From: a virus | Length of the DNA: 64,000 bases | Strand: one strand, 5' to 3' | IMG/VR virus record: IMGVR_UViG_3300027733_000033 | Part shown: piece by piece, positions 6,840-54,802 of the stretch | How positions within the stretch are numbered: the first letter of the stretch is position 1 | Layout: every line of letters starts with the position of its first letter | Made by a program: the position numbers and the translations under genes | The notes under the pieces: generated by a model | Databases searched by the model: none | Told to the model about the DNA's origin: nothing | Seen by the model: the letters and a program-made list of their open reading frames with translations, nothing else

Positions 6840-6920
6840 ATTATTTCCTTTATTTACGATAGATTACGATGTATTTACGATTAGTCAACTGCCCTAACTT
6901 TCATATTATACGTTAATACA

Positions 6921-7502
6921 CTATGAAAGTAAACTTGATTGTCGATAAACATTTTTCAGTTTATCTAAATCATATTCAACGAATCCGGACAGTTTTTTGA
7001 TTCGAAGAAATTCTTTTTGAAACATTGGATATTCGATATCCAAAAACCCAAACATTTTATTTAATATGTTCATGGTTTCAATAGTAATAAAGCCGCCCAT
7101 AAACATTCTGAACGTTAATGGTATTTCACCATCTTTAAATTCAAACAGGTTTGTTTCACCTTTATCTAGTTCCCATTCAATTTTAGCAAGATCGTCTTTA
7201 AAGACGTTAGTCAAGCTTTGTTTACGTTTTAGAAAAAGTAGGTAATTATCAACGCACCCATCATCAATGGCATAAATAAAATTAGGATACCCATAAGCAA
7301 TATTAGCCGCCGTGAACTGGATAACTTCCATGTCAGATTTAAAGTATTTGCTAACAGCTTCAAACAATTTATAATCCTTTCTGCTCAGATATGCCGAATA
7401 GCTTGTTTTTGTTTTACCCTTATTAGCAAACACATCATAATTATTTGACGTGAAATGTAGCTTTATAGAACTGTAATATTGATAAATCTGATACCCGTTC
7501 AT
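6921..7502 (-). CDS. 59: Helicase loader (T4 gp59)
   Basis: YxxIKLHFTxxNYD...RKD motif; position between gp33 and gp32. Confidence 0.85.
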   Translation of the reverse strand: MNGYQIYQYYSSIKLHFTSNNYDVFANKGKTKTSYSAYLSRKDYKLFEAVSKYFKSDMEVIQFTAANIAYGYPNFIYAIDDGCVDNYLLFLKRKQSLTNVFKDDLAKIEWELDKGETNLFEFKDGEIPLTFRMFMGGFITIETMNILNKMFGFLDIEYPMFQKEFLRIKKLSGFVEYDLDKLKNVYRQSSLLS

Positions 7503-7741
7503 TATACGTCCAGAGTAGCAACTTTAGGCAACATACCGTTTGCGACAAATTCGTTTTCTAGTTTACCCCGAATAGAGCGATTAAGCATAGGCACAACATC
7601 TACTACATCAAGATAATGCTCTTCGCAATATTCGAGGATAATATCTAGCACAGGTTTTTTAGTTACAGCTGATTCAGTTTCAATAAAAATTGAGAATTCA
7701 TTAGATGTTTTAAACATAAGTTCTCCATTACAAAAATACAA
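7502..7741 (-). CDS. 33: Late-transcription coactivator (T4 gp33)
   Basis: FSIFIE...LDIILEYCEE...KLENE; synteny. Confidence 0.8.
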   Translation of the reverse strand: MYFCNGELMFKTSNEFSIFIETESAVTKKPVLDIILEYCEEHYLDVVDVVPMLNRSIRGKLENEFVANGMLPKVATLDV

Positions 7742-7772
7742 TTATAACTTATTTTAGTCTAAAAGTAAAGCG

Positions 7773-8258
7773 TCACGCCCGTTCTCTATAAAACCCATGT
7801 TGCCCGACTTTAGTTACTAAGGCAATTCTCATTTGTTTGACGTATTTAAGTTCGTTATCTTTAAAGAAAAACAACGAGCCTTTTGATACATCTCTAAGTT
7901 CATGATTATAAATCATTCTGGCTAGGTAATAACTGTCAAATCTTTCTTTTCCCGTTTTAGGGATAGGCGGTAAATTCATACATGCCCATGAGAATTGACA
8001 AATTAGCCTTCCATGTTTATGTCCCTTTTGGTGAACCACTTCACATACAGTTTTTGGAAAGGATTTATGACGTAACCGGTTCATTACCACTTGACCGACT
8101 AGGACTTTACCTACCAATGGTTCGGAACGAGATTCTCTAAAGATCGCGTCCCCCAAGCAATTGATTTCTGATTCAAGAAATTTACTTTCTTCATGTTTAG
8201 CGTAGACTGCTGTAGTTGACGATAACACAATTGCTGCTGATAATATTAGTTTTAACAC
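7773..8258 (-). CDS. SleB-like cell wall hydrolase (Hydrolase_2)
   Basis: Signal peptide; CLxxAIFRESRSE, VVMNR, FPKTVCEVVHQ, CQFSW, GQHGFY. Confidence 0.9.
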   Translation of the reverse strand: MLKLILSAAIVLSSTTAVYAKHEESKFLESEINCLGDAIFRESRSEPLVGKVLVGQVVMNRLRHKSFPKTVCEVVHQKGHKHGRLICQFSWACMNLPPIPKTGKERFDSYYLARMIYNHELRDVSKGSLFFFKDNELKYVKQMRIALVTKVGQHGFYRERA

Positions 8259-8365
8259 AATTATTTTTCCTATTAGTTCAGAGTAAGCCGTACAACAATT
8301 AAGCTTACTCTTTACCCAAATCAGTATATAATGTTCTTACTGGTAATTTGGATTTGGTTATTTTC

Positions 8366-9019
8366 TCATTGACCAGTTGCTTTCCTAAAATCATCCCGAC
8401 ATTGTTTAGCGGATAACAACCAATTTTTAACAGGTTCCACGAATACTTGTGGATTCTCATCATCAACCGATATTAAAATAACAATTTGGTTTGCCGATAA
8501 GCCTGTTCTTTCTCTAAATGCTAAACTGTAAAAAGCCGCTTGTTGAAAATAGTTTGTGATCCATTCTTTACGTTTCAATTTCCCTGACGTTTTAAAATCA
8601 ATTACTGATAAGACGCCATTATAGTCTGCTATACAATCAGCAGTACCCGCTACCTCTAACAAATCAGAATATAATCTGAGTTCATTACCGTGAATATTAT
8701 CAATAGAATCTAGTAGAGGTTTCATAGATCTCCATGAATCTAAATCAAAATCTGACGGCGTTATCTCTTTATTGTTGAGATAGTCCTCGCATAAAGAATG
8801 GATTCGTGTGCCCCGATTAGAAGCACGTGCGGATATTTTATCAGCTTCAGCATGTCCTACCTTATTCCTCCATTCGTTGATAGCACCCTTGGAAGCATGA
8901 GATGTCACCGAAGTCACTGAAGGATAACGTTTACCCTCCGGTGTTTGGTACCATCTTGAGCCGTTAACGTTAACCCGTGTCAACTGCGTTATTTCAGGAT
9001 GTGCTATATGTGTTTTCAA
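8366..9019 (-). CDS. PD-(D/E)XK exonuclease (Cas4/RecB-like)
   Basis: YPSVTSV, RGTRIH, AGTADCI, IDFKTS, QxAFY. Confidence 0.88.
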   Translation of the reverse strand: MKTHIAHPEITQLTRVNVNGSRWYQTPEGKRYPSVTSVTSHASKGAINEWRNKVGHAEADKISARASNRGTRIHSLCEDYLNNKEITPSDFDLDSWRSMKPLLDSIDNIHGNELRLYSDLLEVAGTADCIADYNGVLSVIDFKTSGKLKRKEWITNYFQQAAFYSLAFRERTGLSANQIVILISVDDENPQVFVEPVKNWLLSAKQCRDDFRKATGQ

Positions 9020-15637: not shown

Positions 15638-16348
15638 TTACCAGAATTTTAATTTTGAGTAAAAAGAACGTTTCGGTTGCTCAACCGTTAAAACATTTTT
15701 AGATAATTCACGCCATGATACTGGAAATACCTTTTCACATTCAGCGCTAATTAACTCAGCAATTTCTTTACATTCTTGTTGAGCATGTTGGTCTACTCGA
15801 AAATACCTTACTCTATCAAAAAATAACAAACTGCCTGTCCAATAAAACTCTGTCATCATATTTTGAGGAAGAACCATTCTAGCTAATTCAGGAGCAACTC
15901 CATTTTCTAACGCATTTTCATATGTACTCAAAGCATATGCAACTGAAGTTTTAATATGTGAGTCGTCAAAAGGTATTACGCCGCCTGAACCCTGTTTAAT
16001 TGATTTTTTTGGTCTAGCACGCCATTCAGCAGGGATATAAAACTCTGGTGTTGAATCAACGTATCGGCGGCTAATTTCGTTTACAACACCGCCTACCTGA
16101 TGTTTCAAAAGTTGTCTGGCAACAAAAATTGGCACTTTTAATTTAAAAGTTATGGCAGTATGAGCGAAAGGTGTCCAATGTTTATGTGCCGCTAAGTATC
16201 TAATCAATCCTTCATCTTTTGAATCTATATTCGTTTTAAATCTATCATCCTTTGCAGTTGATACCCTAGCAGCATTAACAACAGAAGAATCTGTTCCCAT
16301 GCTAGTAATTAATTCAACCGCCATACCAACATATTTCACATCACTCAT
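15638..16348 (-). CDS. thyX: Flavin-dependent thymidylate synthase
   Basis: HWTPF, PIFVARQLLKH, NEISRRY, ARMVLPQ, HAQQE. Confidence 0.96.
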   Translation of the reverse strand: MSDVKYVGMAVELITSMGTDSSVVNAARVSTAKDDRFKTNIDSKDEGLIRYLAAHKHWTPFAHTAITFKLKVPIFVARQLLKHQVGGVVNEISRRYVDSTPEFYIPAEWRARPKKSIKQGSGGVIPFDDSHIKTSVAYALSTYENALENGVAPELARMVLPQNMMTEFYWTGSLLFFDRVRYFRVDQHAQQECKEIAELISAECEKVFPVSWRELSKNVLTVEQPKRSFYSKLKFW

Positions 16349-19689: not shown

Positions 19690-20589
19690 TTATTGTGGGC
19701 GATGCTTAAATCTAGAGATAGCAATTTGTTTCACTTTGCTAGTTAATTTTGCCGCCATTTTGGCTAGCAGAGGTCCTTTCTTGGCAATGATTCTTTCCAT
19801 TCTTTGCTTTTCAGGTAAAGTCAATTCCGCATCAGACTTACCATTAGAAAGTTTTCTTTTTAACAAACCGACCGCAGTTCTACGTGCGCGGTCTTCAATT
19901 CTTTGAGGAGAAGGCATAGTGTGTAAAGCCAATTTCATGCCGCGTTGACGTTTAACCGCGCTTCTAGCAAATACCTGTCTGCGTTTAATTCTATCTGCTA
20001 CGGTTAACCCTTTCCAAGCTTCATCAACAGTAGACAATTCTCCCTCTAATGGGTCTTGTTTTGATTTTTTAAGTTTACCCGCAGATTCGCCTGCTTCGTC
20101 ATCATCGTCATCAACAACATCAGCAACAGAATCGCCTGTATCACTCACAACATGCAATTCGTCTGAATCTACAGCACCTAAGTCAACTAGATCTTCAAGA
20201 TCGTTAACATCGCCTAGCATATTATCGATTTCTTCATCAGACATATGTTCCATGCCATCTTCAATATCCATATTCACGTCTGCGAATTTACCGGTTTCAT
20301 CGCCTTGTTTTCCTGCCGCTTTGCGGTCATTGTCTACCGGCTTAGTTATATCAGAAGATGTAGACATAGAAACAGAACCGTGTTCCATTAATTTTTTTCT
20401 AAAATCTTTAAAATTCATAACACTCTCAGATGTCGTTGGCATAAGAATATTCATAGCCGATTGTTTTAATTCTGCCGGCACATTAGCCGTTTTTAACTTC
20501 TTTAATATCTTAGCATTAGCGTCTTTATCTTTAAGGTCAACACCAAAGATATCTGCTAAAATTTTGATTACATCTTTATTCTGTTTCAT
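19690..20589 (-). CDS. Hypothetical virion/head-associated protein
   Basis: Acidic middle and very basic C-terminus; internal MNFKDFRKKLME motif. Confidence 0.65.
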   Translation of the reverse strand: MKQNKDVIKILADIFGVDLKDKDANAKILKKLKTANVPAELKQSAMNILMPTTSESVMNFKDFRKKLMEHGSVSMSTSSDITKPVDNDRKAAGKQGDETGKFADVNMDIEDGMEHMSDEEIDNMLGDVNDLEDLVDLGAVDSDELHVVSDTGDSVADVVDDDDDEAGESAGKLKKSKQDPLEGELSTVDEAWKGLTVADRIKRRQVFARSAVKRQRGMKLALHTMPSPQRIEDRARRTAVGLLKRKLSNGKSDAELTLPEKQRMERIIAKKGPLLAKMAAKLTSKVKQIAISRFKHRPQ

Positions 20590-21199
20590 TAAGCACCTTA
20601 AAGTCTTTATAAGATAATATTGATTCAGTCAAGCCTTTAACGCCTAACCCCTTTTGCGCTAACTTCCAAACGATTTTAGCTTCAGCATCAGTACAAGGAT
20701 CTGGTAAAGATTTTCTAAAAGAATCAAAATCGCCCTCAGTAACATATTTGCGCATAGCTGTGCCCGACATACTAGCAGCATCGCTTTCATCTGCATCTGG
20801 ATCGCGTTGAAGCGCCATTACCTTTACACTTTTGAATTTGAAATAATCTCGGCTTTCAGCAAAAGCCGGCAAAGATTTACTGTATTCAGGATATCTATCC
20901 GAACCACATACAATAATTATATTCTCATAATTATGTTCATTTGCATAATGTAATAAGTTACCTATGATTTTGACTTTAGTATCTGGGTCAAGTTTGACCG
21001 TACCACGAGTCCATTTGTTCATCAGTTTAGCTTTTACATCATATGGAAGTGGGTTCTTTTTATTTTCTGTATGAGATAAAAATACAGCTGGGTCTGCATC
21101 ATGTTGTTTGGCAATTCTTTCAATTTCAGTAACCAACGCCATATGACCTTTATGAAAAATGTTTGCTCTGCCGAACGCGCATACTAATGTCTTTTTCAT
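20576..21199 (-). CDS. HIGH-family nucleotidyltransferase (cytidylyltransferase/NMNAT-like)
   Basis: FGRxNxxHKGH, KKNPL, VCGSDR, MSGTAMR. Confidence 0.85.
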   Translation of the reverse strand: MKKTLVCAFGRANIFHKGHMALVTEIERIAKQHDADPAVFLSHTENKKNPLPYDVKAKLMNKWTRGTVKLDPDTKVKIIGNLLHYANEHNYENIIIVCGSDRYPEYSKSLPAFAESRDYFKFKSVKVMALQRDPDADESDAASMSGTAMRKYVTEGDFDSFRKSLPDPCTDAEAKIVWKLAQKGLGVKGLTESILSYKDFKVLNETE

Positions 21200-23286: not shown

Positions 23287-23360
23287 GCCACTCGCGGAAC
23301 GTCAATTCCCAGTAGCGCTAATCATTCTAAAGATAATTTAAGGAAATTACTATGACCAGT
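23287..23360 (+). promoter_or_regulatory. Conserved two-hairpin leader RNA (copy 1 of 4)
   Basis: GCCACT-CGC-GGAA-cgtcaa-TTCC-C-AGTAGC, then CT-AA-TCAT...ATGA-CC-AG. Confidence 0.75.
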
Positions 23361-24044
23361 ACAAATATATGCGTAACAGAAAAACTTTTTGCGATAAGTG
23401 AAAATAAATTATACATGGATAGATACATAAAATTTATTAATCATTATGAGTCTATGCAATACACAATAAGTGGATATTTTGAATATCATCACATATTACC
23501 TAAATCATTATTTCCAGAATTCAAAATATCAAATTTTAATTTAATTAAACTTCCATACAGAGCACATTTTATTGCACATTATTTGTTGGCTAAAGCAACA
23601 AATAATTACAAAATGATTTCAGCATTTAACGGCATGTGCAATCAGAATAAACAAAAACATCAACGGTCATTATCTGTGCTATATGCTGCGGCTAAAAAGA
23701 TGTTTTCAGAAAGTCAACGCGGTTCTTCCAATATAGGTTATGGGATGGTATCTGCGTGGAATAAACAACTTAATGCACGAGTGCGTGTAACAAAAGAACA
23801 ATTTTATTCAAATAAAGAAATTTATGGTGGTGTAACTTGTAAAGAAGCTTTACAATGGAAAACTATACACGAAAATTATATACAGAAACCTCAATCAGAA
23901 TACCAAAGAATGCGTGCATCTGAAACAAGTTTAAACACAGCTTCAGCAAAATTAGTGTCAACCGGAGAATCTTTAGGTCGAATTTCTAAAAATGATATTA
24001 GATGGTCAACTGGAGAAATTGTAAGTGCCAATAAAAAATGTTAA
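23352..24044 (+). CDS. Free-standing HNH homing endonuclease
   Basis: EYHHILPKSLF...NLIKL..RAHFIAHYLL; antisense to the flanking operon. Confidence 0.85.
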   Translation: MTSTNICVTEKLFAISENKLYMDRYIKFINHYESMQYTISGYFEYHHILPKSLFPEFKISNFNLIKLPYRAHFIAHYLLAKATNNYKMISAFNGMCNQNKQKHQRSLSVLYAAAKKMFSESQRGSSNIGYGMVSAWNKQLNARVRVTKEQFYSNKEIYGGVTCKEALQWKTIHENYIQKPQSEYQRMRASETSLNTASAKLVSTGESLGRISKNDIRWSTGEIVSANKKC

Positions 24045-25994: not shown

Positions 25995-26097
25995 TTTATA
26001 CGCTCCGGATAATTCATTAAGGTTTAACTTCATTACGATCTATTATACTATGTTTTTTGTAAAAGTAAAGCTTTTTTTATCTTTTTTAAAAATAATT

Positions 26098-26839: not shown

Positions 26840-27379
26840 TCACGCAAATTTACTATTAATGAAGTTTAAAATCTTTTCTTGGTCAGAGAAGTTTTCATTT
26901 TTGAATTCAGTAATTAAATCCATATAGTCAAAGTTGCCTAGGATATTGCTAATCTTAGTATCCTTAGACTTTAAAAACTGCTCGGGTTGGTTACTACCGC
27001 GTTCATCATATCGACTTTGCAAGGTAGCCTTATCAGCAGAAATAACCAAAATATCAAATTGAGTATTAGGTAAGCTAGAAAAGAAGTCGTACGACTTCTG
27101 ACCGGTAAGCCTATCACCCTCAAACATAATATTCACATCAGTTTGTTTTGCCCAATTGATAACCTCTGGCAGAGTAGCCATACTGAGGCGGTCTGTGCCG
27201 GCAAATACTTCACCTTCGTCATACTTTCCTAGGATATGTAAATTCAAATCTTTACAATATTCTGACGAAACAAGTTTAGCTTCTTCGCGCCGCTCCCAAG
27301 TATAGTTTTTCATAAACTCACGAAACAAAGTAGTTTTACCGGTTCCAGGGACACCACAAACAGCAATAATTTTTCTCAT
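26840..27379 (-). CDS. P-loop nucleotide kinase (base-modification-associated type)
   Basis: GVPGTGKTT; LGKY...FAGTDRLSM; FEGDRL. Confidence 0.8.
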   Translation of the reverse strand: MRKIIAVCGVPGTGKTTLFREFMKNYTWERREEAKLVSSEYCKDLNLHILGKYDEGEVFAGTDRLSMATLPEVINWAKQTDVNIMFEGDRLTGQKSYDFFSSLPNTQFDILVISADKATLQSRYDERGSNQPEQFLKSKDTKISNILGNFDYMDLITEFKNENFSDQEKILNFINSKFA

Positions 27380-27756
27380 AATTCAGCTCTCACGTTTTCT
27401 TTTTCAGTAGGGGAATCTATAGCAATAACATGTACTTTTTTACAGTAATTTTTTAAGGTTTCTATTTGAATAGGATCGTCCTCAAAATGAAACTGAATAT
27501 CATAACCAGACTCGATCAGCATTTCGATAGTTTTAGCCTTATGTAAACCAGAACTAACGCGAGTTTTTTCATGATATCGAATAGGATTAAAGAAGACTTG
27601 ATTATAAATACCGCGCTGATGTAACATAGTTAGCGTTGCCCGCGTTTCTTCTATAGATCTACCGGTTATAATAATATCATCTGGGTCAGGTCTAACACCG
27701 CGCAACCCTTTGCCCATATAAATAACGCCATCAATATCAAAAGTGTTAATTTGCAT
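27376..27756 (-). CDS. Capless HAD-family phosphatase
   Basis: FDIDGV, ITGRS, K, FEDD. Confidence 0.85.
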   Translation of the reverse strand: MQINTFDIDGVIYMGKGLRGVRPDPDDIIITGRSIEETRATLTMLHQRGIYNQVFFNPIRYHEKTRVSSGLHKAKTIEMLIESGYDIQFHFEDDPIQIETLKNYCKKVHVIAIDSPTEKENVRAEL

Positions 27757-27804
27757 TCATAATACCCTAAAGTTAATTTTACTATTCAATTATAACTTAA
27801 TTAT

Positions 27805-29067
27805 CTAACAAAGTAAAGAAAAATCTACAGGCTCAACGTCTAATTCTTTGAAGATAACTTTAGTTTGAATATCGACCCATTTAGATCTAACCATGTTATC
27901 TTGAAGTAATTCATACATAGCGGCTAACTCTGTAACATTATCGAAATAGAATTCTGGATTATTAGGGAACATAACCCTATCGACATCACATTTTGAATAC
28001 ACAACTATTGGTGTTCTTGCGACAAGGGAATCATAGCAGGTTTTACCAACATAAGAAATATTCTCTCTGCCTTTACCTACAAACAAATATGCAAGGTGAT
28101 TATTAATAAATTCAAAATATTCTGGGGAGTTGCCCAATATGCTACCTTGTTCTATATCAACAACAGGAATATCAGAAGATAACTTGTCAACATCACCAAA
28201 GAAATGTATCGGTGGCAAATTAGCAGGATTTTCCTTTAGTAAATTCTTAAAGACTTTCAACCGCGTTTTGTTAATTCCACTCAAAAAGCCTATAAAACAA
28301 AACGAATTATTTTTAGGAACAGTTTTATCCAGATAACCATATTTGCTATGGTTTTCTTTAACAAGGAAAAAAATATCATCGGAAAGGTATATTGTGTTGC
28401 GTTTTACCACATCTTCTGAAACCAAGCCGGCTAATGGACCAGCTGATTTTTTATTGAGCACAGTATCATATAACCAGTTTATTTTAGGCGAACCATTAGC
28501 TAACCAATAGACATTATTGTAATCTATAAATTGTTGAGTTTCGACAAATGTTTTAGCCTGCTCATATGCTTCTGGGTTTTTATCTTTAATATTTTTTTCC
28601 ATGCCGTCTATATTTAACATAGCAAGTTTTAAGTAATCACATGCGACATCTTCAGAATCAGTAACCCGTATCATAACAGGCTTATTTTTTCTGCTAAACA
28701 TATTAGAAAGTTTATATTGTAAGATAGATCTACCGCTTAACATACCACCGAAAATAACACCATAATTTCTGGTTGTTATCAATATATCATATTCGTCGGA
28801 AACACGTTCGATACCAATATCATCAGTCACCAAAATTGTTTTATGAGGAAAATCAAAACAACTATCACCCTCTAATGATGCGACATCGTACCGTTCAACC
28901 AGACGCAAACTGTTTTTTGATAAGGTTATCAAATCAACAATAAGGTCTGGTGTGTACTGTTTCTGTTTTTCGTACACAGCATTGAAGTACAGAAACTCCG
29001 ACATGATTTTACCGCCCATTGTCACATCGTTTGTAATCAAAATTCCAATTTTTAATTTTTTAGTCAT
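27805..29067 (-). CDS. DNA glycosyltransferase, T4 beta-glucosyltransferase-like (GT-B)
   Basis: SEFLYF / VDLITLSKN / EYDILI...IFGG / VTD parallel the T4 BGT motifs SETIYL / VDIISLKN / DYDRLI...FFGG / FTD. Confidence 0.65.
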   Translation of the reverse strand: MTKKLKIGILITNDVTMGGKIMSEFLYFNAVYEKQKQYTPDLIVDLITLSKNSLRLVERYDVASLEGDSCFDFPHKTILVTDDIGIERVSDEYDILITTRNYGVIFGGMLSGRSILQYKLSNMFSRKNKPVMIRVTDSEDVACDYLKLAMLNIDGMEKNIKDKNPEAYEQAKTFVETQQFIDYNNVYWLANGSPKINWLYDTVLNKKSAGPLAGLVSEDVVKRNTIYLSDDIFFLVKENHSKYGYLDKTVPKNNSFCFIGFLSGINKTRLKVFKNLLKENPANLPPIHFFGDVDKLSSDIPVVDIEQGSILGNSPEYFEFINNHLAYLFVGKGRENISYVGKTCYDSLVARTPIVVYSKCDVDRVMFPNNPEFYFDNVTELAAMYELLQDNMVRSKWVDIQTKVIFKELDVEPVDFSLLC

Positions 29068-29070
29068 AGT

Positions 29071-30363
29071 TTATCGTGGAGAATTAGTTGCATAGTCGTT
29101 TACCGCTTTTTGGAATGTATAAGGTAAATTTTTAGCAATTGGGTTATTTTCTTTCAATTGAGATTCAGTCATAGGCGTAATAATACGTCTGGCTAATGCG
29201 TCACACTCAAATTTAGCATCTTCAATTTTCATTTGAACCGGCGGCGTTTTTTGAGTAATATGAGAAGCGCCGCGTAAGAACCCAACGATACCTAACTCAG
29301 CAGCCACTTTACAAAATCTAATAGCAGATACAACAACCGCACCGGAATTAGGAGAATCTTGAACTGATAATCTAGCAGTTAATTCATATCTAGCACCGGC
29401 AAACCCGTAAGCTACAATATCAATATTGGCAATTTTATTATCAGAACCGACATAAGTTCCTCCTGGTTTTTGAATAACTGTTAGCGATGGACCAGCATAT
29501 AAAGTCATTCCATCAATAGAAGTATTTCGAACACTATTTTGACCTTTCAATACATTTTCTTTAGAAATATGTTTAGATTCTAATCGGTCAGTTTTAGCCA
29601 TATTTAAAAAATCGGTGTTGGCTGTTCTACCGGTACGGATATTTTCTTGACCTTGCGTAGTGCCAGCCGCCATATTCATTTGAATATGTTGAGTAACTAA
29701 TAATCCCGCGTCAAGCATACCGCCCTGTAAAATTTCAGATAAACGTGAGGCACCAAACCCAGAACGCATATCAGAACCAACAATAGTCAACCCTGCGTCA
29801 ATAAACTTTTGTTCAACAAGTTGAGCTTCTTCAGTAGAAATAAATGTAGGGATACAGTTAACAAAATGACAGCCAGCTTTAACCGCCGCATCGATATAGA
29901 ATTTGCTTGCTTCGTGAGAGCCTACTGGAAGATAGTTAACGACGACATCAACTTTATGGTATTTTAACAACTCAACAACACGTTGAAAAGATTCAGCCGG
30001 AATAGCGCCGGTTCTAAACGAAACGTTTTCTGGATAGTCTAACATATGAGGAGCCACACCATCTAACTCCGGACCAGAATAAACGATAGCGCCTTTTGGT
30101 ACACATGCGTCTGAAATTTCATTAACATGATCCATAGAGCAATTTGGATTTGCTCTTAATGCTTCTTTTAGTGGTAGGTTAACTTTACGAATATCAACAT
30201 CAAACCCACACACGAATTCGATATTGTTAACGGTATAGCCACCGATATCTGGATACATTAAACCGACTGTATCATTTTGATTTTCTATGTAGTATTGAAC
30301 GCCTTCCACCAAAGATTTAGCGCAAGAACCAACACCCACTAATGCTACTCGTATTTTTGACAT
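29071..30363 (-). CDS. ino1: Inositol-3-phosphate (myo-inositol-1-phosphate) synthase homologue
   Basis: RVALVGVGSCA, YLPVGS, FVNCIP, NTDFLNM, SKHISK, DNK, DSPNSG. Confidence 0.9.
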   Translation of the reverse strand: MSKIRVALVGVGSCAKSLVEGVQYYIENQNDTVGLMYPDIGGYTVNNIEFVCGFDVDIRKVNLPLKEALRANPNCSMDHVNEISDACVPKGAIVYSGPELDGVAPHMLDYPENVSFRTGAIPAESFQRVVELLKYHKVDVVVNYLPVGSHEASKFYIDAAVKAGCHFVNCIPTFISTEEAQLVEQKFIDAGLTIVGSDMRSGFGASRLSEILQGGMLDAGLLVTQHIQMNMAAGTTQGQENIRTGRTANTDFLNMAKTDRLESKHISKENVLKGQNSVRNTSIDGMTLYAGPSLTVIQKPGGTYVGSDNKIANIDIVAYGFAGARYELTARLSVQDSPNSGAVVVSAIRFCKVAAELGIVGFLRGASHITQKTPPVQMKIEDAKFECDALARRIITPMTESQLKENNPIAKNLPYTFQKAVNDYATNSPR

Positions 30364-30404
30364 TTGTTTTTCCTAAATAAAAATAATATTATAAATGATT
30401 TTCT

Positions 30405-31604
30405 TTATAAAGTAAAGCATGTATCAACAATATTTTGTTTTCTTAAAAATAGCGTTGGGTCAAACTTAACCTTTAACATATCTCTTTCTGTTTCACTGAA
30501 CAACTCAACCCAATCCGAATCCAGTTTTTTCATGCTATTTGTTTTAAATTTTTCCAGTGACAATAATTTATGTACATCAGGTTCATCGTTGTAGTACAGA
30601 TGAATATTCAAATTTAGTCCATAATTTTTCATCACAGTGAAATATTCTTCATTTAAAGAAAAATCAGTGAAGTTTTTGCCTTTAGTCATCAACCCAGCAA
30701 TATAAGGTTTCCAGTCAATTTCTTTCCACGCAGAAGATAACGCATCATATTGATCAGCAAGTTCGTTAGTTGTCCATCCTGTAAATTCTTTAGGCTTTCT
30801 TCCACCAGCACCTGCGGTTTTTCTGAACTCACATAAACATGATTCAATATTATAGACATCTAATTTTATGTTAGAGTTGCTGTTGATGTATTCCATCAAA
30901 TACTGGAAATTCGTTTCCATCAAATTTATTTCTGACTTAGCAGGTTTAACCTTCACTCCATTTCTCTTAGTCGCTATATCTTCTCTATTGAATAAGTAAC
31001 ACAAAGAATCATATTGACTCCATGTATCAGAATACAACTGTAGATCCCAGTGGTCGACGTCAAAATCGAAAAATTCATATACAGTCTGTTGTGCTAACCA
31101 CGCAGTCATTCTTCCTATAGAATACATACTTTGTAAAGATTTATTCAAGGAGTAAAAGTTTTCTGCCGTATTACCGACAGTGGATACCCGCTCAAGGTAA
31201 TCATATGGGGAGTCGTTTCCTATTGTCGCTTTAATCGACTTCACATAATCAGGAAATTTTCTTAAATTCCATTTTGCGTCTTTAGCATAAAATGCTCGTT
31301 TCCAGTTAACATCGTGCCACTCAACTATATGTTCATGTTTTGTATTCAGTAAGTCAGGAAACTGCTGGAGTACAATCATTGCCCAGTGGTTACGGTATGA
31401 TTGTCCAAATACCAAACAATACAAAGCTTTTTGGTCTTTAGTTAACCCCATCATATCGGAAATAACTAAACCAGAATGCCAATGGTCTAAATCTCCTTCA
31501 TACATTCTAGTGACAGCAACTCGTCTAAAAGCTTCAAGTCTATTTTGTGGTAATCGTACATCCTTGTACGATGATAAATCTAAGTCTAATTCATATAAAT
31601 TCAT
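30405..31604 (-). CDS. aGPT-PPlase / amino-acid:DNA transferase family (HhH-glycosylase-like fold)
   Basis: SIGRMTAW and IESCLCEFRK motifs; context next to kinase and dioxygenase. Confidence 0.7.
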   Translation of the reverse strand: MNLYELDLDLSSYKDVRLPQNRLEAFRRVAVTRMYEGDLDHWHSGLVISDMMGLTKDQKALYCLVFGQSYRNHWAMIVLQQFPDLLNTKHEHIVEWHDVNWKRAFYAKDAKWNLRKFPDYVKSIKATIGNDSPYDYLERVSTVGNTAENFYSLNKSLQSMYSIGRMTAWLAQQTVYEFFDFDVDHWDLQLYSDTWSQYDSLCYLFNREDIATKRNGVKVKPAKSEINLMETNFQYLMEYINSNSNIKLDVYNIESCLCEFRKTAGAGGRKPKEFTGWTTNELADQYDALSSAWKEIDWKPYIAGLMTKGKNFTDFSLNEEYFTVMKNYGLNLNIHLYYNDEPDVHKLLSLEKFKTNSMKKLDSDWVELFSETERDMLKVKFDPTLFLRKQNIVDTCFTL

Positions 31605-33010
31605 TAAAAGAATTCCTCTAATGACACACTTTCATAGGCGTTTTTAAGCCAAGGGTGATACTTATCTAACCATTCATTTCCATTAGGCTGAGCCTTTAGA
31701 TAATCGTACCATTCTTTAGCTTTAGAATAATCACCATCTTTAGATTCATGGTCAGCCCACATTCCTGGAGTAATACCGTTCCATCTAAACCGTTGGTCTT
31801 TATGGTCTGGGTCATTTTTTCTAGATTCAACGAAATTGAATCGGCATTCTTCATAATCGTAAGAACCTAAGTTTAACATATTTTCTCTGAAGTAACAAAT
31901 AATAGAAACCCTCTCAGCTAAGTCGTCATTTTTAACGATAGGCGTGTTACCATGCATAACTTCATGATTATTAACAAGTAACAAATCTAAAGGTCTAACG
32001 CTAACCGCGATTCTGTATTCTGGAAATACTAGATAGCCGCCAGAATAGTTATCATTAACAGATAACACTAGCAAATTAGATAAGCCTTCATTCAAATCGC
32101 CGGCGTCATAATGAGCCGCCGTTCTAAAGGTGTTATTCACTGTTAATGTAGTGAATACCGTGCCTGGAACCAAAAACTTTTCATCAATTTTATCAGCCGC
32201 CGCTTTTTGATTACCCCAGCGCCATGGTAATAAGGTGTTAAACCCTTTGTTCAAAGACTGGATAAAAGGGAAACATTTTTTGAATTTATCAAACTGATAA
32301 TTTGTATATGATGTTGGTCTACCATATGGAATTCTAGGGTATCTATCAAACCAACCTGCTACACCAGAATTACATGGAACAGCATAGTTTGTACTAGAAA
32401 TGAATTCTTTAGCAACCATTTCAGCTTCAGCTTTAGCCGCTTCACGCGGTAACTTAGAAGTCGCTTCAGCCCACTCATCAAAATTAAATCCTTCAGGCAA
32501 TTTAGAAGGCAACCAAACTTGACAACGAATTTCATTATCAACATAATGAGCATTTTTGATTTTATCAAACTCATCACCTTCATTATACAAATCGTCAATA
32601 GGATTAATGAAGTAATCTAAAATAGCATGTTCTTTAGGTTTAACCCTAATACGACCAGAGTTATCGCTAAATGTACCATCAATATTACCTGTATCTTGAA
32701 ACGTACCGGCGGCAAGACCTCTATTATTAGATACAGTAGCAGCATCTTTTAAACCCTCATACGCCCAGTCGTGCTCTTCTTTACTGAAGAAGTTTTTTCT
32801 AAATTTGAACGCAATACGCAGTTCGTCTTGACCTTTATCGCATGAGCTACAATCTGATTCACAATCTACCTGTGTAGATAAATCACACATAGCAGGCATA
32901 TAACAGTCGGTATCTTCTTCAACCAAAATATCGTAATGAGATTCACCAAGAAATCTACCCAATAGGTGCTCACAATCTAGTTTAGATTTGGCAACAATAA
33001 CATTAACCAT
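31604..33010 (-). CDS. TET/JBP-family 2OG-Fe(II) dioxygenase
   Basis: FTTLTVN..FRTAAHYDAGD (HxD), MHGNTP (H), ERVSIICYFRENM (RxS). Confidence 0.88.
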   Translation of the reverse strand: MVNVIVAKSKLDCEHLLGRFLGESHYDILVEEDTDCYMPAMCDLSTQVDCESDCSSCDKGQDELRIAFKFRKNFFSKEEHDWAYEGLKDAATVSNNRGLAAGTFQDTGNIDGTFSDNSGRIRVKPKEHAILDYFINPIDDLYNEGDEFDKIKNAHYVDNEIRCQVWLPSKLPEGFNFDEWAEATSKLPREAAKAEAEMVAKEFISSTNYAVPCNSGVAGWFDRYPRIPYGRPTSYTNYQFDKFKKCFPFIQSLNKGFNTLLPWRWGNQKAAADKIDEKFLVPGTVFTTLTVNNTFRTAAHYDAGDLNEGLSNLLVLSVNDNYSGGYLVFPEYRIAVSVRPLDLLLVNNHEVMHGNTPIVKNDDLAERVSIICYFRENMLNLGSYDYEECRFNFVESRKNDPDHKDQRFRWNGITPGMWADHESKDGDYSKAKEWYDYLKAQPNGNEWLDKYHPWLKNAYESVSLEEFF

Positions 33011-33077
33011 AATTCAAATTCCTCTTATAAAAATAATAATTATACTTTAAACCCGTTTCAAAGTAAAGGTATTTAGA

Positions 33078-34871
33078 CTAAAATTTGAATCCATTCGTTT
33101 CAATTCGTTTAGTTTTAGCTTGAAACCCGTTATTTGTATCAACAGTACCCGCGCCGGATATATTATGCTGAGCAGAGCTTTCAACATCAAACAATCTCAT
33201 CTTACTTCTATCTATACCGATAGTGAAACGCTTATAATAGGAAATGTCATTATATCTATTTTTCAACTGCTTAACCATAATCTGACCCATTTCTTCTAAC
33301 TCTTCAGTAGACATTAAGCCTATGAATAAATCTAACGTATGGGCGATACCTATAGATTCACTGACATTAGTTAAATCCATATCGGTAGAAGTCTGTCCTT
33401 CACGATTAGGCTGAGTCGCGGTGACAACCGGAACATTATACTCTACCGCCAACCCGCGCAACTCTTCAGCAATAGATTTAATCAACATATAAGAATTAAC
33501 ACCGCTACCGTATTTCATTCTTTGAGACGCACAAATATTCAAATAATCTATACAGATGAGGTCAGGCTTGAAGTTCTTTTTACCCTTTAACTCCTCAAGC
33601 AAAACTCTAAAATGACCAGCATGAGCTGATGACGTCGGATATTCTTTGATGATTAATTTACCAGTCGTCTTTTCCATCAACCTTTGAATCCTAGTTTCAA
33701 ATACAGGTCGTTCAACAGTTTTCAACTCTGTAATAGGAATATTCAAAAGATTAGCATCGATACGTTCAGCAATACGTTCTTCAGACATTTCCATTGTAAT
33801 ATATAGAACATTTTTACCCTGTGCCATAGTAGCCGCCGCAATATGACACATCGCTAAAGATTTACCAACGCCCGTGTTATGAGAAGAAACCCCATTTGTA
33901 TAGTACCTATGGTTATCATGGTCAACCGTAATATCAACGATAGGAATCAACTCACCAGTTTCAACAATATAGCCGCTGACTAAACCTTTATCTGTATGAA
34001 AGTTTACTGTTTGGTCTACAAGGTCTTTAGCATAATACCAACCTGCCTGAGTTTCAAACAAATGAATCTCATTACATCTAACAGTATCGCCGTTAGATAA
34101 CGTAAGGACATACTCATCCCAAAAACCTTTATTCACAAAATTCGATACGTTAACCCAACCATCTGGAGATGTTACCTCTATTTTATAATCTAATAACAAA
34201 TCTTTAACATCACCAATCGCAATATGCTTTTCAGCTACCCAACCCTGTTTACTGGTAATCCTAACTGAAATAGACGTATCAGGATGAACGCAACCTGCTA
34301 AGAAACAATTTAACGTTTTAAGGCTTAACCCGCCGCCCGTAATTTTATTCATCAACTCTAAGTCAAACGGAATTTTAGTTTCAACGTTATGATAATGGTC
34401 GTATCGTTCAGAGTAATCTAAAATGTAATCATGACCAACATTTGTATCAAAAGATACCGCTAATGCGTCAGATAATATAGACGGAATAGCATCTTCACGG
34501 AACTGTTTATCCTTACCCTCAATAATCTTAATAGAATGTAATATGGCACCATAAACTGCTTTATCTTTACAGAATTTTTCAGTTTCAAGTAATAACCATT
34601 CATCATTAATATCTTTTTGTTCAATTTTAGAAGCAAGCGCCGTTAACTCAGTTAATTCTTTATCATTGATGTCAGTTCTGTTTCTGATTTCAATATCAAG
34701 AATCTGTGGCGTTATAATCTTATTGAACTTGGTAAAGTATTCACCAATCTCGCTAACAAGAATAGATTCCATCCTATCGGTAAAATATTCTTTTTTAATG
34801 AAAGGTAAGGTTTTTCTAGTAAACTCTTCATTGTAAATCAGATTAGAAATAATAATATCTTCAATTCGCAT
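33078..34871 (-). CDS. 41: Replicative helicase (T4 gp41, DnaB-like) with intein
   Basis: LAG/TGVGKS Walker A, YITMEMSEE, IKEYPT, IDYLNI, TATQ, KQLKNRY; likely start MRIED. Confidence 0.95.
   Translation of the reverse strand: MRIEDIIISNLIYNEEFTRKTLPFIKKEYFTDRMESILVSEIGEYFTKFNKIITPQILDIEIRNRTDINDKELTELTALASKIEQKDINDEWLLLETEKFCKDKAVYGAILHSIKIIEGKDKQFREDAIPSILSDALAVSFDTNVGHDYILDYSERYDHYHNVETKIPFDLELMNKITGGGLSLKTLNCFLAGCVHPDTSISVRITSKQGWVAEKHIAIGDVKDLLLDYKIEVTSPDGWVNVSNFVNKGFWDEYVLTLSNGDTVRCNEIHLFETQAGWYYAKDLVDQTVNFHTDKGLVSGYIVETGELIPIVDITVDHDNHRYYTNGVSSHNTGVGKSLAMCHIAAATMAQGKNVLYITMEMSEERIAERIDANLLNIPITELKTVERPVFETRIQRLMEKTTGKLIIKEYPTSSAHAGHFRVLLEELKGKKNFKPDLICIDYLNICASQRMKYGSGVNSYMLIKSIAEELRGLAVEYNVPVVTATQPNREGQTSTDMDLTNVSESIGIAHTLDLFIGLMSTEELEEMGQIMVKQLKNRYNDISYYKRFTIGIDRSKMRLFDVESSAQHNISGAGTVDTNNGFQAKTKRIETNGFKF
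33876..34292 (-). mobile_element. Mini-intein (139 aa) in the helicase Walker A motif
   Basis: Begins CVHPDT, block B CNEIHLF, ends VDITV...YYTNGVSSHN followed by T; no LAGLIDADG domain. Confidence 0.93.
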
Positions 34872-34881
34872 ATCAGTCCTG

Positions 34882-35163
34882 TTAAGCTTTAATGTTTTCA
34901 ATTCCTGTAGTAATAATATCAACCAAAATATCACCAATCATTTTCTTAAATGTCATCAAATCATCTTCAGGGATATGTCCTTCCTGTAAAATGTAATTAA
35001 ATTCTAGCATACCACCATCCTCATCTGGTATCTCAACAAATTTTACATCATCATATGTAAGTACACAATAGATAGATTCATTTTCTGTTAAAAAGTCAAA
35101 CTCGATTGCGGTAACTTCAGCACCGGTTTTATCGATATAATTTATTGCTTGGTAATTTATCAT
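34882..35163 (-). CDS. Hypothetical protein at the T4 gp40 position
   Basis: Acidic protein between uvsX and gp41. Confidence 0.5.
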   Translation of the reverse strand: MINYQAINYIDKTGAEVTAIEFDFLTENESIYCVLTYDDVKFVEIPDEDGGMLEFNYILQEGHIPEDDLMTFKKMIGDILVDIITTGIENIKA

Positions 35164-35235
35164 AATGTTCCCATAAAATGAAAATAGCGTATAACGAATT
35201 AACATTATACGCCTTTGTTTCTAAAAAGTAAAGTT

Positions 35236-36315
35236 TTAGATTTCAGTATCGATATCTTCTAATTCATCAATAATTTCTTCATCTGTAGCAGTATTATATG
35301 CAGCACCAAGCTGGAACCTTTCTTTAATGAAAGTTTTAAACTTACCATTGCTCAATATATCATTCCAAAATGCATCAGTTTGAGTTTCTTTTGCGCGGTA
35401 TTTCTTTTCAGCCAATTCGCCAGTATCTAAATTGACCTTTTGGTACCAACCATTAGATGGTTTAATGATAGCGCCGGATTCTAACCCTAACTCAAGTAAA
35501 CCTGAAAACTTTTGTATACCACCAGCATAAGTTACTGTGAACACAAGTTTAGATTTTTCTCTCACATATCTAGACTTTTCAACGTTCAACGTAAAATTAT
35601 AACCCACTAAATCTGTTCCATCTTTTTCTTGAGATTTTCCGATAATAAATGCAGTGTTAGCAGAATATATCAAACCAGACCCACCACTGATAATTTGCTT
35701 AGGGTATAACGACATTTCAGAATATGTATGACAGATAGTTATGCACGGAATGTCTTTAGCAACTAAAGAAGGAGTAACCATACGGAACAACCCTTTAATA
35801 GATTTTGCTCTTTGCATTTCAGCAACACTTTTTTCACTCAAAGCATCATCTAATTCTTTTAAACTAGCAGTATTTCCTATAGAATCAATCATTATAATTA
35901 CTTTATCGCCACGCTCTAATTCTTTTAACTGTTTAACCATATCAAACTTTAACATCTCAATATGTTCAATTGGAATATGGACGACCCTGTCAGGGTCTAC
36001 GTCCATAGAACGCAGGTAATCTGGAGTAACACCGCCCTCTGAATCATAAAATATACATACTGCGTCTTTATACTTTCTAAAATACGCGCTAATACAAACT
36101 AATGCAGTTGCTGATTTAAAAGATTTACTTGGACCAGCTAACAAGGTTAAACCGCTGCTTAACCCACCATCAACATCACCTGAAAATGCTATATTAACGA
36201 TAGGAATATCTGTAGGGATAACATCTTTGTCTTTAAACATTACTGAATCAGTCAAAACAGCAGTGTGTTTAGTTGTACTATTTTTAAGAATTTTACTCAT
36301 CAACGGCGATTTCAT
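35236..36315 (-). CDS. uvsX: RecA-like recombinase
   Basis: AGPSKSFKS, FYDSE, IDSIGN, MQRAK, SGGSG, KSRYVREK. Confidence 0.95.
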   Translation of the reverse strand: MKSPLMSKILKNSTTKHTAVLTDSVMFKDKDVIPTDIPIVNIAFSGDVDGGLSSGLTLLAGPSKSFKSATALVCISAYFRKYKDAVCIFYDSEGGVTPDYLRSMDVDPDRVVHIPIEHIEMLKFDMVKQLKELERGDKVIIMIDSIGNTASLKELDDALSEKSVAEMQRAKSIKGLFRMVTPSLVAKDIPCITICHTYSEMSLYPKQIISGGSGLIYSANTAFIIGKSQEKDGTDLVGYNFTLNVEKSRYVREKSKLVFTVTYAGGIQKFSGLLELGLESGAIIKPSNGWYQKVNLDTGELAEKKYRAKETQTDAFWNDILSNGKFKTFIKERFQLGAAYNTATDEEIIDELEDIDTEI

Positions 36316-37082
36316 TTTGTTTCCTTTTTATGGTTTCCAGCAAAACTTTGCATTACTTGATTTAACTTCTTTTCACTCATTAACATACCACGAACCCACC
36401 CGTCTCCTGGAGAAATGTTAGCTTTAGTGTTAATTGTGCCATTATTCCACCAAAACATTTTACCAGTAACCTTCCCACCTTGTTTCCCACCTTTAGAAGC
36501 ATTGATCAATGCTTCTTCTGGATTAGCTTCTCGCCATTCTTTAGTGACACATCCACCAAAATTGCCAGATTCAATTAACGCATTAGCGCCTATAATTGCC
36601 CATTCATTTCTTAAATGCTGTAAATTTGGGTTATGTATGCCTTTTTGTTTATCTCTACACGCAGAACCAGCAATTTTTCCAATTTCTGAAAAATCAATAT
36701 GATCCATTGAGCCGTTAGACCAATTAAACTTAGTTTGAGCAGATCTATCATAATCAGCAGCAAATATACCAAGATTATTATCCTTTGTAATTCTTCCGCC
36801 TATTTTACCAGCATTAGAATATAATAATAAAATATCTTTATCTGTTAATTTTACAGCAATTCCACGCATAAAACAATACGCAAGTTTATTTCCGATAGGT
36901 TTACCCATTTTGTATCTTAATAAATGGACAATCCTGTGTTCTTTAAATGTTAAAACTGCGCACAAATAAGAATTTGGGTCTTCATGTTTAGGTGTAATAT
37001 GATGATTGTGGTGAATTGAAGAATCATAAATTCTTCCTATTGAACGCGATATAATATCGTCTTGAAGTTTTTCGTAATTCAT
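36312..37082 (-). CDS. Free-standing HNH homing endonuclease
   Basis: HNHHITPKH...LTFKEHRIVHLL; GKxGG repeats; C-terminal WWNNG...GWVRG. Confidence 0.8.
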   Translation of the reverse strand: MNYEKLQDDIISRSIGRIYDSSIHHNHHITPKHEDPNSYLCAVLTFKEHRIVHLLRYKMGKPIGNKLAYCFMRGIAVKLTDKDILLLYSNAGKIGGRITKDNNLGIFAADYDRSAQTKFNWSNGSMDHIDFSEIGKIAGSACRDKQKGIHNPNLQHLRNEWAIIGANALIESGNFGGCVTKEWREANPEEALINASKGGKQGGKVTGKMFWWNNGTINTKANISPGDGWVRGMLMSEKKLNQVMQSFAGNHKKETK

Positions 37083-54068: not shown

Positions 54069-54145
54069 GCCACTCGCGATGTTACCAGCATCCAGTAGCA
54101 CTAATCATTCCAATGACAATTTAAGGTAAAACTATCATGACCAGC
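54069..54145 (+). promoter_or_regulatory. Conserved two-hairpin leader RNA (copy 4)
   Basis: GCCACT-CGC-GATG-ttaccag-CATC-C-AGTAGC; CT-AA-TCAT...ATGA-CC-AG; CTAAATA upstream. Confidence 0.78.
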
Positions 54146-54802
54146 ACAACTATATATACTCCTATCACACCCACCTATCTGTACATCAAACAGCATTCCA
54201 TAACCAAAAAGAAATATTTTGGTAAGACCACTCGAGATCCATACAAATACAATGGTTCTGGTAAGCACTGGTCTAGACACATCAATAAACATGGTAAAGA
54301 ACACATCGTTACTCTTTGGGTTTCTGACTTGTATCACGACACATCAATTGTCGAGGTTGCCTTAAAATTTTCTGCTGATAACGATATCGTCAAATCTAAA
54401 GAATGGGCGAACCAAAAACCAGAAAATGGATTAGATGGCGGAAGTGTGAAACATACAGAAGAAACTAAACTCAAAATGTCTGTTGCACATGAAGGTAAAA
54501 AACACACAGAAAAAACTAAAGCTAAAATGCGTAAGCCTAGATCAGATGAAACCAAAGCCAAAATATCTGCTACTCTAACAGGCAAAAAACGTGGGCCTCA
54601 ATCAGAAGAAACTAAAGACAAAATATCTGCAGCTAACAAAGGTAAACCTAGAAAACCTCAATTAGAAGAATCTAATGCTAAACGATCTGCTACTATGACG
54701 GGTGTCTCTAAACCAGAATTTTTTTCAATAATTGAAAATAGAAAGACTTATGGTAAATCACATCTTTCTAGATATTATCCTGAATTTAAGCAGTACTATT
54801 AG
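54137..54802 (+). CDS. GIY-YIG homing endonuclease with NUMOD3 repeats (paralog of 42325)
   Basis: N-terminal ~100 aa nearly identical to the 42325 protein; HTEETKLKMS repeats. Confidence 0.88.
   Translation: MTSTTIYTPITPTYLYIKQHSITKKKYFGKTTRDPYKYNGSGKHWSRHINKHGKEHIVTLWVSDLYHDTSIVEVALKFSADNDIVKSKEWANQKPENGLDGGSVKHTEETKLKMSVAHEGKKHTEKTKAKMRKPRSDETKAKISATLTGKKRGPQSEETKDKISAANKGKPRKPQLEESNAKRSATMTGVSKPEFFSIIENRKTYGKSHLSRYYPEFKQYY

Follow-up and report, generated by a model that had tools for sequence, protein, structure and literature searches.

A phage gene cluster with an Ino1-like synthase as a candidate pathway for cyclitol-modified thymidine

What is an inositol-phosphate synthase doing in the midst of the DNA-modification genes of a phage? 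The question is raised by the IMG/VR virus record IMGVR_UViG_3300027733_000033, of which a stretch of 64,000 nucleotides was analysed (the window). This DNA belongs to an uncultured T4-like phage with a GC content of about 34%, whose whole genome may run to some 150 kb. At positions 26840-33010, its minus strand carries six genes encoding, in order, a TET/JBP-family dioxygenase, an amino-acid:DNA transferase (AADT), an Ino1-like synthase, a glycosyltransferase resembling the T4 β-glucosyltransferase (BGT), a phosphatase of the haloacid dehalogenase (HAD) superfamily, and a P-loop kinase. From the letters alone, the original prediction read this cluster as a pathway in which ordinary thymidine is oxidized after replication, activated, and then decorated with inositol or inositol phosphate. 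That pathway is supported here, on evidence drawn entirely from comparative genomics and predicted folds. On balance we lean towards the reading that the cluster directs a post-replicative hypermodification of thymidine, in which the appended group is a cyclitol made by the phage itself and most likely myo-inositol. Hypermodified phage DNA withstands restriction enzymes and CRISPR nucleases, and such modifications are a source of epigenetic-sequencing tools; to our knowledge, all those described for thymidine involve amino acids, amines or, in kinetoplastids, glucose.

The gene that raises the question (29071..30363, minus strand) encodes a 430-residue protein, predicted to be an Ino1-like NAD-dependent cyclitol-phosphate (myo-inositol-3-phosphate) synthase. 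The protein matches the Inos-1-P_synth family (PF01658) at 2.8e-8 (34.4 bits for a cut-off of 27), and its best solved match by far is Ino1 from Mycobacterium tuberculosis (PDB 1gr0, 1.4e-55). It shares with 1gr0 a GxGxxA N-terminus along with the motifs GsDxrS, NtDF, SK..SK, DnK, DSPNS, and qKxPP, which we take to be the NAD-binding and Lys/Asp active-site set of myo-inositol-phosphate synthases (MIPS). These motifs are invariant or nearly so in 68 distinct sequences from phages, the cultured Cr30, RP13, and Moby among them. The proposed Ino1-like identity of the gene product therefore holds.

Is this synthase tied to DNA modification, or does it simply live nearby? Relatives of INO1 were found in 211 IMG/VR viral contigs, and the best 80 of these were analysed along with three cultured-phage loci, making 83 loci in all. 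Of the 37 with flanks of 2.5 kb or more on each side, 35 have both a kinase and a candidate transferase no more than five genes away from INO1. These partners come in two kinds of pair, either a P-loop kinase (KIN) with a transferase of the AADT type (ADDT, PF18724), or a PF18723 kinase (HMUDK-like) with a family named c48, and the two are never mixed in the 37 well-flanked loci. The reverse search gives the same picture: a search with a profile built from the transferase subfamily yielded 66 contigs, 45 of them new with respect to the INO1-based set. INO1 lies just downstream of the transferase in 62 of these, while two contigs end at the transferase and two have no INO1, so that adjacency is seen in 62 of the 64 informative contigs. 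The co-occurrence of ino1 and HAD with the transferase family across phage genomes, which the original prediction had singled out for checking, is thus positive in both directions.

The linkage also survives changes of partner and place. In a tree of INO1, the two non-homologous kinase/transferase sets are intermingled, and the well-supported branches require at least 4 to 5 switches between them; this is a quick maximum-likelihood tree, in which the three longest branches (Cr30, Moby, and RP13) are unreliable. The modules sit after the helicase, before uvsX, or between the primase and ribonucleotide reductase (RNR) genes, and in three different gene orders INO1-HAD lies between the transferase and the kinase or directly abuts them. 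Such re-pairing with non-homologous partners at different sites makes inherited synteny alone hard to credit. The relatives' modules hold further genes for GT-B and GT4 glycosyltransferases, an FkbM-type methyltransferase, and an epimerase, to which modules of type B add thymidylate-synthase-like and C5-methyltransferase-like genes. The pyridoxal-phosphate (PLP), radical-SAM, and FAD enzymes of amino-acid-derived adducts were not found among the relatives' module genes. Judged by their predicted families, the glycosyltransferases, FkbM-type methyltransferase, and epimerase would suit a hydroxyl-rich adduct.

Two of these accessory families deserve a word of their own. In one sub-lineage, the FkbM-type S-adenosylmethionine-dependent methyltransferase (PF05050) is encoded between the TET gene and the transferase (L034:7990-8721 and seven other loci), and it may O-methylate the adduct. 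Family c48 is a viral family of about 335-356 residues (L063:12762-13769, L023:8866-9936, and 46 further loci), which takes the place of the AADT in modules having a PF18723 kinase. It has no named family in Pfam or the ESM Atlas. The idea that it is a divergent AADT received no support from hhalign; its mutual exclusivity with ADDT, which is the whole basis for the assignment, makes it a candidate analogous transferase.

The next question is whether the window's transferase and kinase could carry out the chemistry expected of such a module. The transferase gene (30405..31604, minus strand) encodes 399 residues and was originally assigned to the aGPT-PPlase/amino-acid:DNA transferase group (AADT/aGPT-Pplase2). 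This is borne out by a match to ADDT (PF18724) at 4.8e-10 over residues 64-262 (40 bits, cut-off 26.2) and by the retention of a Glu/Cys motif. Residues E254, L257, C258, and K262 do not vary within the subfamily, even as identity among its members falls to about 23%. The E254-C258 stretch aligns to ETVLC of phage M6 gp51, a glycine:DNA transferase in which a conserved Cys and a nearby Glu are essential (PMC8989533), although the profile alignment to gp51 as a whole is of weak significance and BLAST does not connect the subfamily to the M6 or ViI enzymes. On these grounds, the protein is predicted to displace the phosphate of 5-phosphomethyl-deoxyuridine (5-phosphomethyl-dU) by a nucleophile.

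The phosphate itself would be supplied by the last gene of the cluster (26840..27379, minus strand), whose 179-residue product has a Walker A motif (GVPGTGKT) and matches AAA_18 with 34.1 bits for a cut-off of 29.4. Its identification as a P-loop kinase was correct, and the family is probably a distant relative of M6 gp54, a proven 5-hydroxymethyl-deoxyuridine (5-hmdU) DNA kinase. Between the two, hhalign gives a probability of 67.6% (E 5e-5 over 125 columns) with the GxY..AGxDR and FEG motifs in common, while BLASTP aligns the P-loop alone. The PF18723 helical domain has no match in the window's kinase, where 179 residues leave no room for it, and the same goes for the 187-residue gp54. The protein is a predicted 5-hmdU DNA kinase. 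The annotation of such enzymes is confusing: those of Cr30 (L003, 9961-10599) and M6 (L150, 11686-12249) are both labelled "terminase small subunit," which is likely a misannotation, and the window's kinase also matches phrog_800, a family named for the terminase small subunit.

Which base would be modified? The first gene of the cluster (31604..33010, minus strand) encodes a 468-residue TET/JBP-family 2-oxoglutarate/Fe(II) dioxygenase, predicted to hydroxylate thymine (a 5-methylpyrimidine) in DNA. Membership of this family, as first proposed, is secured by a match to Tet_JBP (PF12851) over residues 243-376 at 1.6e-22, with 79.9 bits against a gathering score of 34.9, and by intact iron and 2-oxoglutarate motifs. 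The iron triad H300-x-D302 and H353 and the 2-oxoglutarate motif R367-x-S369, mapped by motif, are invariant in 11 homologues, and the protein also matches phrog_24024 at 5.8e-138. The window encodes the flavin-dependent thymidylate synthase ThyX (15638..16348, minus strand; PF02511, 7.7e-45). Neither a C5-methyltransferase (PF00145) nor a thymidylate-synthase-like hydroxymethylase was found among the scanned open reading frames (ORFs) of the window, namely all those of at least 190 residues and 23 shorter ones of 74-181 residues. PF00145 also has no match in five contigs with the window's module type, one of them 131 kb long and 73% complete. In the literature, phage enzymes of the 5mYOX group can oxidize T after replication, and a clade of predicted T-dioxygenases has P-loop kinases and AADTs linked to it (PMC13229309, 2026). 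Because ThyX is present, no C5-methyltransferase was found in the part of the genome that the window covers, and T-dioxygenases with this same pair of partners are published, thymine is likely the substrate. This agrees with the preference for T over 5-methylcytosine (5mC) that had been expressed from the sequence, on the absence of a visible methyltransferase.

Beside the synthase stands a small phosphatase gene (27376..27756, minus strand), encoding a minimal, capless HAD-superfamily protein of 126 residues. It has no Pfam match, and PDB searches by sequence and by profile came back empty; the sole profile match is to phrog_415, a polynucleotide kinase family (6.8e-10). Its AlphaFold2 (AF2) model, with a mean confidence (pLDDT) of 90.3, retrieves Pnkp1 (4xrp, Z 12.5) and the T4 Pnkp 3′-phosphatase (5uj0, Z 12.1) in a VIA search, followed by many other HADs. 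In motifs I to IV, residues D7, D9, G32, R33, K73, E92, D93, and D94 are invariant, and T31 nearly so. With a Rossmannoid HAD fold in the model and all four motifs intact, the phosphatase assignment is supported. Of the 80 loci that reach far enough past INO1, about 79 have HAD downstream of it (in six loci, Moby's among them, HAD was detected by tblastn), and the two genes are directly adjacent unless a glycosyltransferase is inserted. Two loci, L136 and L149 (about 5959-8600), display a transferase-HAD-kinase arrangement without INO1. Since HAD is capless, Pnkp-like, and retained with the transferase in these two loci, an adduct on DNA is slightly favoured as its substrate; we therefore lean a little, and loosely, towards a HAD that dephosphorylates the adduct on DNA rather than free inositol phosphate.

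The remaining gene (27805..29067, minus strand) encodes a 420-residue glycosyltransferase that would have escaped notice by sequence comparison. There is no match in Pfam, NCBIfam, PHROG, or the PDB (by sequence or profile), and only 13 homologues exist among 5.8 billion proteins. Its AF2 model (pLDDT 82.5) has the two Rossmann domains of a GT-B fold. The top Foldseek match is 1qkj (1.3e-9), and the best entry in the VIA search is T4 BGT (1j39), with Z 21.9 and a root-mean-square deviation of 4.7 over 328 residues. The four best VIA matches are all T4 BGT (Z 20.9-21.9), ahead of the next entry at Z 18.3 and of the T4 α-glucosyltransferase (AGT) at Z 18.2. By this model, which places BGT more than 3 Z units over the next fold at 16% sequence identity, the enzyme is probably T4-BGT-like, as first suggested. 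It occurs only in the phages closest to that of the window (6 of the 84 INO1 loci, 4 of the 66 transferase loci), and of its homologues at 34-35% identity, the two whose contexts were read (P0013 and P0016) come from T4-like contigs with no INO1 and with a thymidylate-synthase-like gene about 4-5 kb downstream. Being limited to nearest relatives, and having distant homologues that lack INO1, the glycosyltransferase would be a lineage-specific add-on. Its target could be either leftover 5-hmdU, in a branch resembling base J, or the cyclitol, as an extension of the adduct.

One relative gives a glimpse of how these modules change. In L007:6847-12567 (on the same contig as L130), INO1 is 99% identical to that of the window, while the transferase has been swapped for a 25%-identical paralogue, an extra GT4 glycosyltransferase of 379 residues has been inserted, and the BGT-like enzyme is just 55% identical to the window's. 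The decorating enzymes thus appear to be turned over rapidly around a fixed INO1.

Put together, these assignments suggest the following scheme. Normal dTTP would be made by way of ThyX and RNR, and incorporated T would be hydroxylated in DNA to 5-hmdU by the TET/JBP dioxygenase, then phosphorylated to 5-phosphomethyl-dU by the P-loop kinase. As for M6 gp51, Cys258 of the AADT-family transferase would attack C6, expelling the phosphate and presenting an exocyclic methylene. Meanwhile, the Ino1-like synthase would convert glucose-6-phosphate to the nucleophile donor inositol-3-phosphate, and a hydroxyl of this compound or of inositol would capture the methylene to yield an ether-linked 5-(inosityl-O-methyl)-dU. 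HAD would strip the phosphate, acting on free inositol phosphate or on the DNA-bound adduct. In the lineage that has it, the T4-BGT-like enzyme might then place a sugar on the cyclitol or on leftover 5-hmdU, the latter being base-J-like. We infer every substrate and product in this scheme, as well as the order of capture and dephosphorylation. An oxygen nucleophile has a precedent, since ViI gp247 links the hydroxyl of serine to the C5 methylene, and M6 gp51 takes other nucleophiles (PMC8989533).

What weighs against this pathway? To begin with the cyclitol itself, the synthase matches the Ino1 equivalog TIGR03450 at 1.1e-64, but its 218.8 bits are about a third of the cut-off of 638. Its second-best solved relative (6k96, 5e-30), in the same family, is a five-membered-cyclitol-phosphate synthase, and with a score below the equivalog cut-off the product therefore need not be myo-inositol. 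Along with two phage-specific insertions with respect to M. tuberculosis Ino1, this would allow the cluster to decorate DNA with a different Ino1-like product, such as another cyclitol or a carbasugar phosphate made from a different sugar phosphate. We hold this to be improbable, given how far 1gr0, a genuine Ino1, outranks all other solved matches and how invariant the presumed Lys/Asp active-site set is. A second line of doubt concerns what reaches the DNA. The likeness of the kinase to the proven 5-hmdU kinase is weak, and the known AADTs draw on glycine, serine, or putrescine from the host pool, with no dedicated donor genes (PMC8989533). All INO1 carriers are T4-like, with their DNA-modification genes clustered in the same plastic region (in many, that between uvsX and the helicase), so part of the linkage could be inherited synteny. 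In the 15-kb locus examined around the INO1-HAD pair of the Menderaviruses (the Stenotrophomonas phages to which we return below), neither a kinase nor a transferase was detected. Taken with L136 and L149, this means that the transferase does not strictly require INO1, and that INO1 is not bound to the transferase alone. The transferase might then draw on a host-pool amino acid or polyamine in the manner of M6, ViI, and PhiW-14, leaving INO1-HAD as an auxiliary pair that might, for instance, serve host physiology or provide an osmolyte or lipid head group, and that was brought here by the accumulation of accessory genes. This is the leading rival, yet we judge it unlikely: the pair lies between or against transferase and kinase in three gene orders and at least three genome positions, it adjoins the transferase subfamily in nearly every informative contig, it has kept this adjacency through at least four swaps of non-homologous partners, and even in Moby it stays inside a DNA-modification cluster and not among metabolic genes.

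Two other readings accept the dioxygenase while changing its outcome. In one, the main product is glucosyl-5-hmdU, which is base-J-like and formed by TET and the BGT-like enzyme, with the kinase and transferase handling leftover 5-hmdU and inositol never reaching the DNA. The structurally nearest enzymes, T4 BGT and AGT, do both act on hydroxymethyl bases in DNA, and the surroundings of P0013 and P0016 would fit such a role. The rarity of the glycosyltransferase argues otherwise: the conserved core is TET-ADDT-INO1-HAD-KIN, so that the enzyme would be an addition and not the main pathway, and we regard this reading as very improbable. The other would have the dioxygenase act on 5mC, making the final base a cytosine derivative. 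Many phage TETs do oxidize 5mC (10.1101/2023.12.21.572611), the required methyltransferase could be encoded beyond the window, and type B INO1 modules have C5-methyltransferase-like and thymidylate-synthase-like genes. We give this the least credence of all, in view of the blank PF00145 searches in the window's scanned ORFs and the five relatives, of the P-loop kinase and AADT, which are known thymidine machinery, and of the rarity of C5-methyltransferases alongside 5mYOX pathways, about 6% of which co-occur with one (PMC13229309). The preferred reading remains that of a thymidine carrying a phage-made cyclitol.

Cultured phages offer a second view of the INO1-HAD pair. In GenBank, Ino1-like genes are found in Ralstonia phage RP13, Caulobacter phage Cr30, and Stenotrophomonas Menderaviruses. 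Cr30, the standard transducing phage of Caulobacter crescentus, encodes TET, transferase, INO1, HAD, and kinase inside 9 kb, which makes the prediction accessible in a cultured phage. Its TET/JBP homologue (L003, 1706-3034) is labelled "SNF2 DNA repair protein," likely a misannotation, and between its transferase and INO1 lies gp122 (L003, 5943-6869), which has a sub-threshold match to PF20691, a TET-associated glycosyltransferase family (8.5e-4, 19.7 bits for a cut-off of 27.5). RP13 combines the ADDT and HMUDK types, having a transferase homologue, a PF18723 5-hmdU kinase, INO1, and HAD, in genes set farther apart. Two kb downstream of its INO1-HAD pair is a predicted anti-CBASS Acb1 phosphodiesterase (L001, 10631-11221; PF23474, 8.7e-15). 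In Stenotrophomonas phage Moby (L002, 6207-11621), INO1 and HAD stand between FolE and QueC-DpdA-QueE, a 7-deazaguanine DNA-modification cluster. The Moby HAD is gp040, annotated as hypothetical and 52% identical to the HAD of viral contig L017. This arrangement is a hint that a purine modification, too, might draw on the cyclitol kit.

A bolder proposal, which we hold with somewhat less than even confidence, takes in all of these phages. T4-like aquatic phages (at least 211 contigs), together with Cr30 and RP13, would bear a cyclitol (myo-inositol) ether on the C5-methyl of thymidine, extended by the BGT-like enzyme to a pseudo-disaccharide in the window's lineage. INO1-HAD would be a portable kit for hydroxymethyl-pyrimidine and perhaps 7-deazaguanine pathways, with HAD acting on the DNA-bound phospho-adduct.

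How does this compare with systems already described? The closest are those of M6, ViI, PaMx11, and PhiW-14 (PMC8989533, PMC5889632), where the same kind of P-loop kinase stands beside a PF18724 transferase with the Glu/Cys motif. The logic is the same, as 5-hmdU is phosphorylated in DNA and the phosphate is then substituted; the ViI product is already an O-linked ether. The differences lie at either end of the pathway. In those phages 5-hmdU comes from a dUMP hydroxymethylase, whereas here it would arise from T by TET/JBP oxidation after replication. Host amino acids are the donor there, whereas the window's cluster has its own donor pair, Ino1-like synthase and HAD. Tailoring is carried out there by PLP, radical-SAM, or FAD enzymes, while the window has a glycosyltransferase, and its transferase is a divergent subfamily relative to the M6 and ViI enzymes. 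The 5mYOX clade C1 T-dioxygenases (PMC13229309) likewise associate a phage TET/JBP enzyme with a P-loop kinase and an AADT and no C5-methyltransferase. Unlike in those systems, a ParB-like gene was not found among the scanned window ORFs, and inositol genes are not mentioned in that work.

The glycosyltransferase invites comparisons of its own. T4 BGT is its best structural match despite low sequence identity, and TET with the BGT-like enzyme alone would give the chemistry of base J, made by JBP and JGT in kinetoplastids; unlike in either system, the window's glycosyltransferase gene is embedded between INO1 and HAD. In the phage TET/5mYOX pathways to glycosylated 5-hydroxymethylcytosine (10.1101/2023.12.21.572611; Cell Rep 2024), post-replicative oxidation is also followed by sugars and T4-BGT-like GT-B enzymes are used, but these pathways start from a C5-methyltransferase and attach glycans directly from nucleotide sugars, whereas the window adds a kinase/transferase route and a cyclitol synthase.

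Mycothiol biosynthesis opens with Ino1, the GT-B enzyme MshA acting on inositol-3-phosphate, and the phosphatase MshA2, a reaction order that is mirrored by the window's Ino1-like synthase, GT-B enzyme, and phosphatase. MshA is indeed among the fold matches, but far under T4 BGT and AGT (Foldseek TM 0.32) and outside the VIA top 50, and unlike in mycothiol synthesis the glycosyltransferase is absent from most INO1-HAD modules. An MshA-like enzyme acting on inositol-3-phosphate was dropped as the primary reading, since T4 BGT and AGT rank clearly higher and P0013 and P0016 occur without INO1.

What is new, then, is the inositol link, the logic of oxidation, kinase, and transferase being already published. 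In line with the earlier statement that no inositol-modified DNA base has been described, the literature search found no paper linking inositol or inositol-phosphate synthase to phage DNA modification, and inositol genes are absent from the pathways listed in two recent 5mYOX surveys (10.1101/2023.12.21.572611, PMC13229309). A cyclitol-bearing base would belong to a new chemical class, and there is a real chance that this cluster makes such a base. If the pathway is as proposed, the amino-acid:DNA transferase family would accept a wider range of nucleophiles, and phages would be carrying a movable "donor-synthesis" pair.

How is the cluster arranged and expressed? As originally described, the six genes are co-oriented and nearly abutting, and they directly follow the helicase: the ORFs span exactly 26840-33010, and the first begins 67 nt downstream of a gp41/DnaB-like replicative helicase (33078..34937, minus strand; DnaB_C PF03796, 1.7e-15; phrog_19, 4.8e-116). 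From TET to the kinase, the five junctions are an overlap of 1 base, gaps of 41, 3, and 48 nt, and an overlap of 4 bases. The single operon of the original prediction is too simple a description. A promoter-like motif, made of TTTACTTT, a 14-15 nt spacer, and TATAAT, has 28 exact copies in the window for 0.14 expected. All are on the minus strand (e.g., 2891-2919, 26042-26069, 35204-35232, and 61466-61493), most early and replication genes have one upstream, and the motif resembles T4 early promoters. Three copies fall within the cluster's own region: at 33039..33067, 29 nt upstream of the TET start; at 30388..30416, 25 nt upstream of that of INO1; and at 27789..27817, 33 nt upstream of that of HAD (all minus strand). 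With copies before TET, INO1, and HAD, the cluster would therefore consist of three two-gene units, TET-ADDT, INO1-GT (the glycosyltransferase), and HAD-KIN, all predicted to be under a single, early-type class of promoter, a shared feature that speaks for the proposed pathway.

The rest of the window is that of a T4-like phage distant from those in culture. Its products include gp32, a gp59-like loader, class I RNR, ThyX, primase, UvsX, and the gp41-like helicase, as well as a large terminase, gp46/47-like nuclease subunits, and a DNA ligase. The terminase reaches only about 47% identity to that of any cultured phage, and a megablast of the six-gene cluster against GenBank phages gave no match. 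A cytidylyltransferase-like gene (20576-21199; PF01467; phrog_3041, 1.1e-39) has homologues that are found repeatedly in relatives (L014, L034, L035, and L068), a few genes downstream of the TET-type module. A CDP-inositol route through this gene was set aside as unsupported; the gene lies 6 kb off, beyond a homing endonuclease. Four homing-endonuclease-like ORFs (phrog_655, NUMOD3, HNH) are scattered across the replication module, at 23352-24044 (+), 36312-37082 (-), 54137-54802 (+), and 59073-59669 (-), two of them on the strand opposite to their neighbours.

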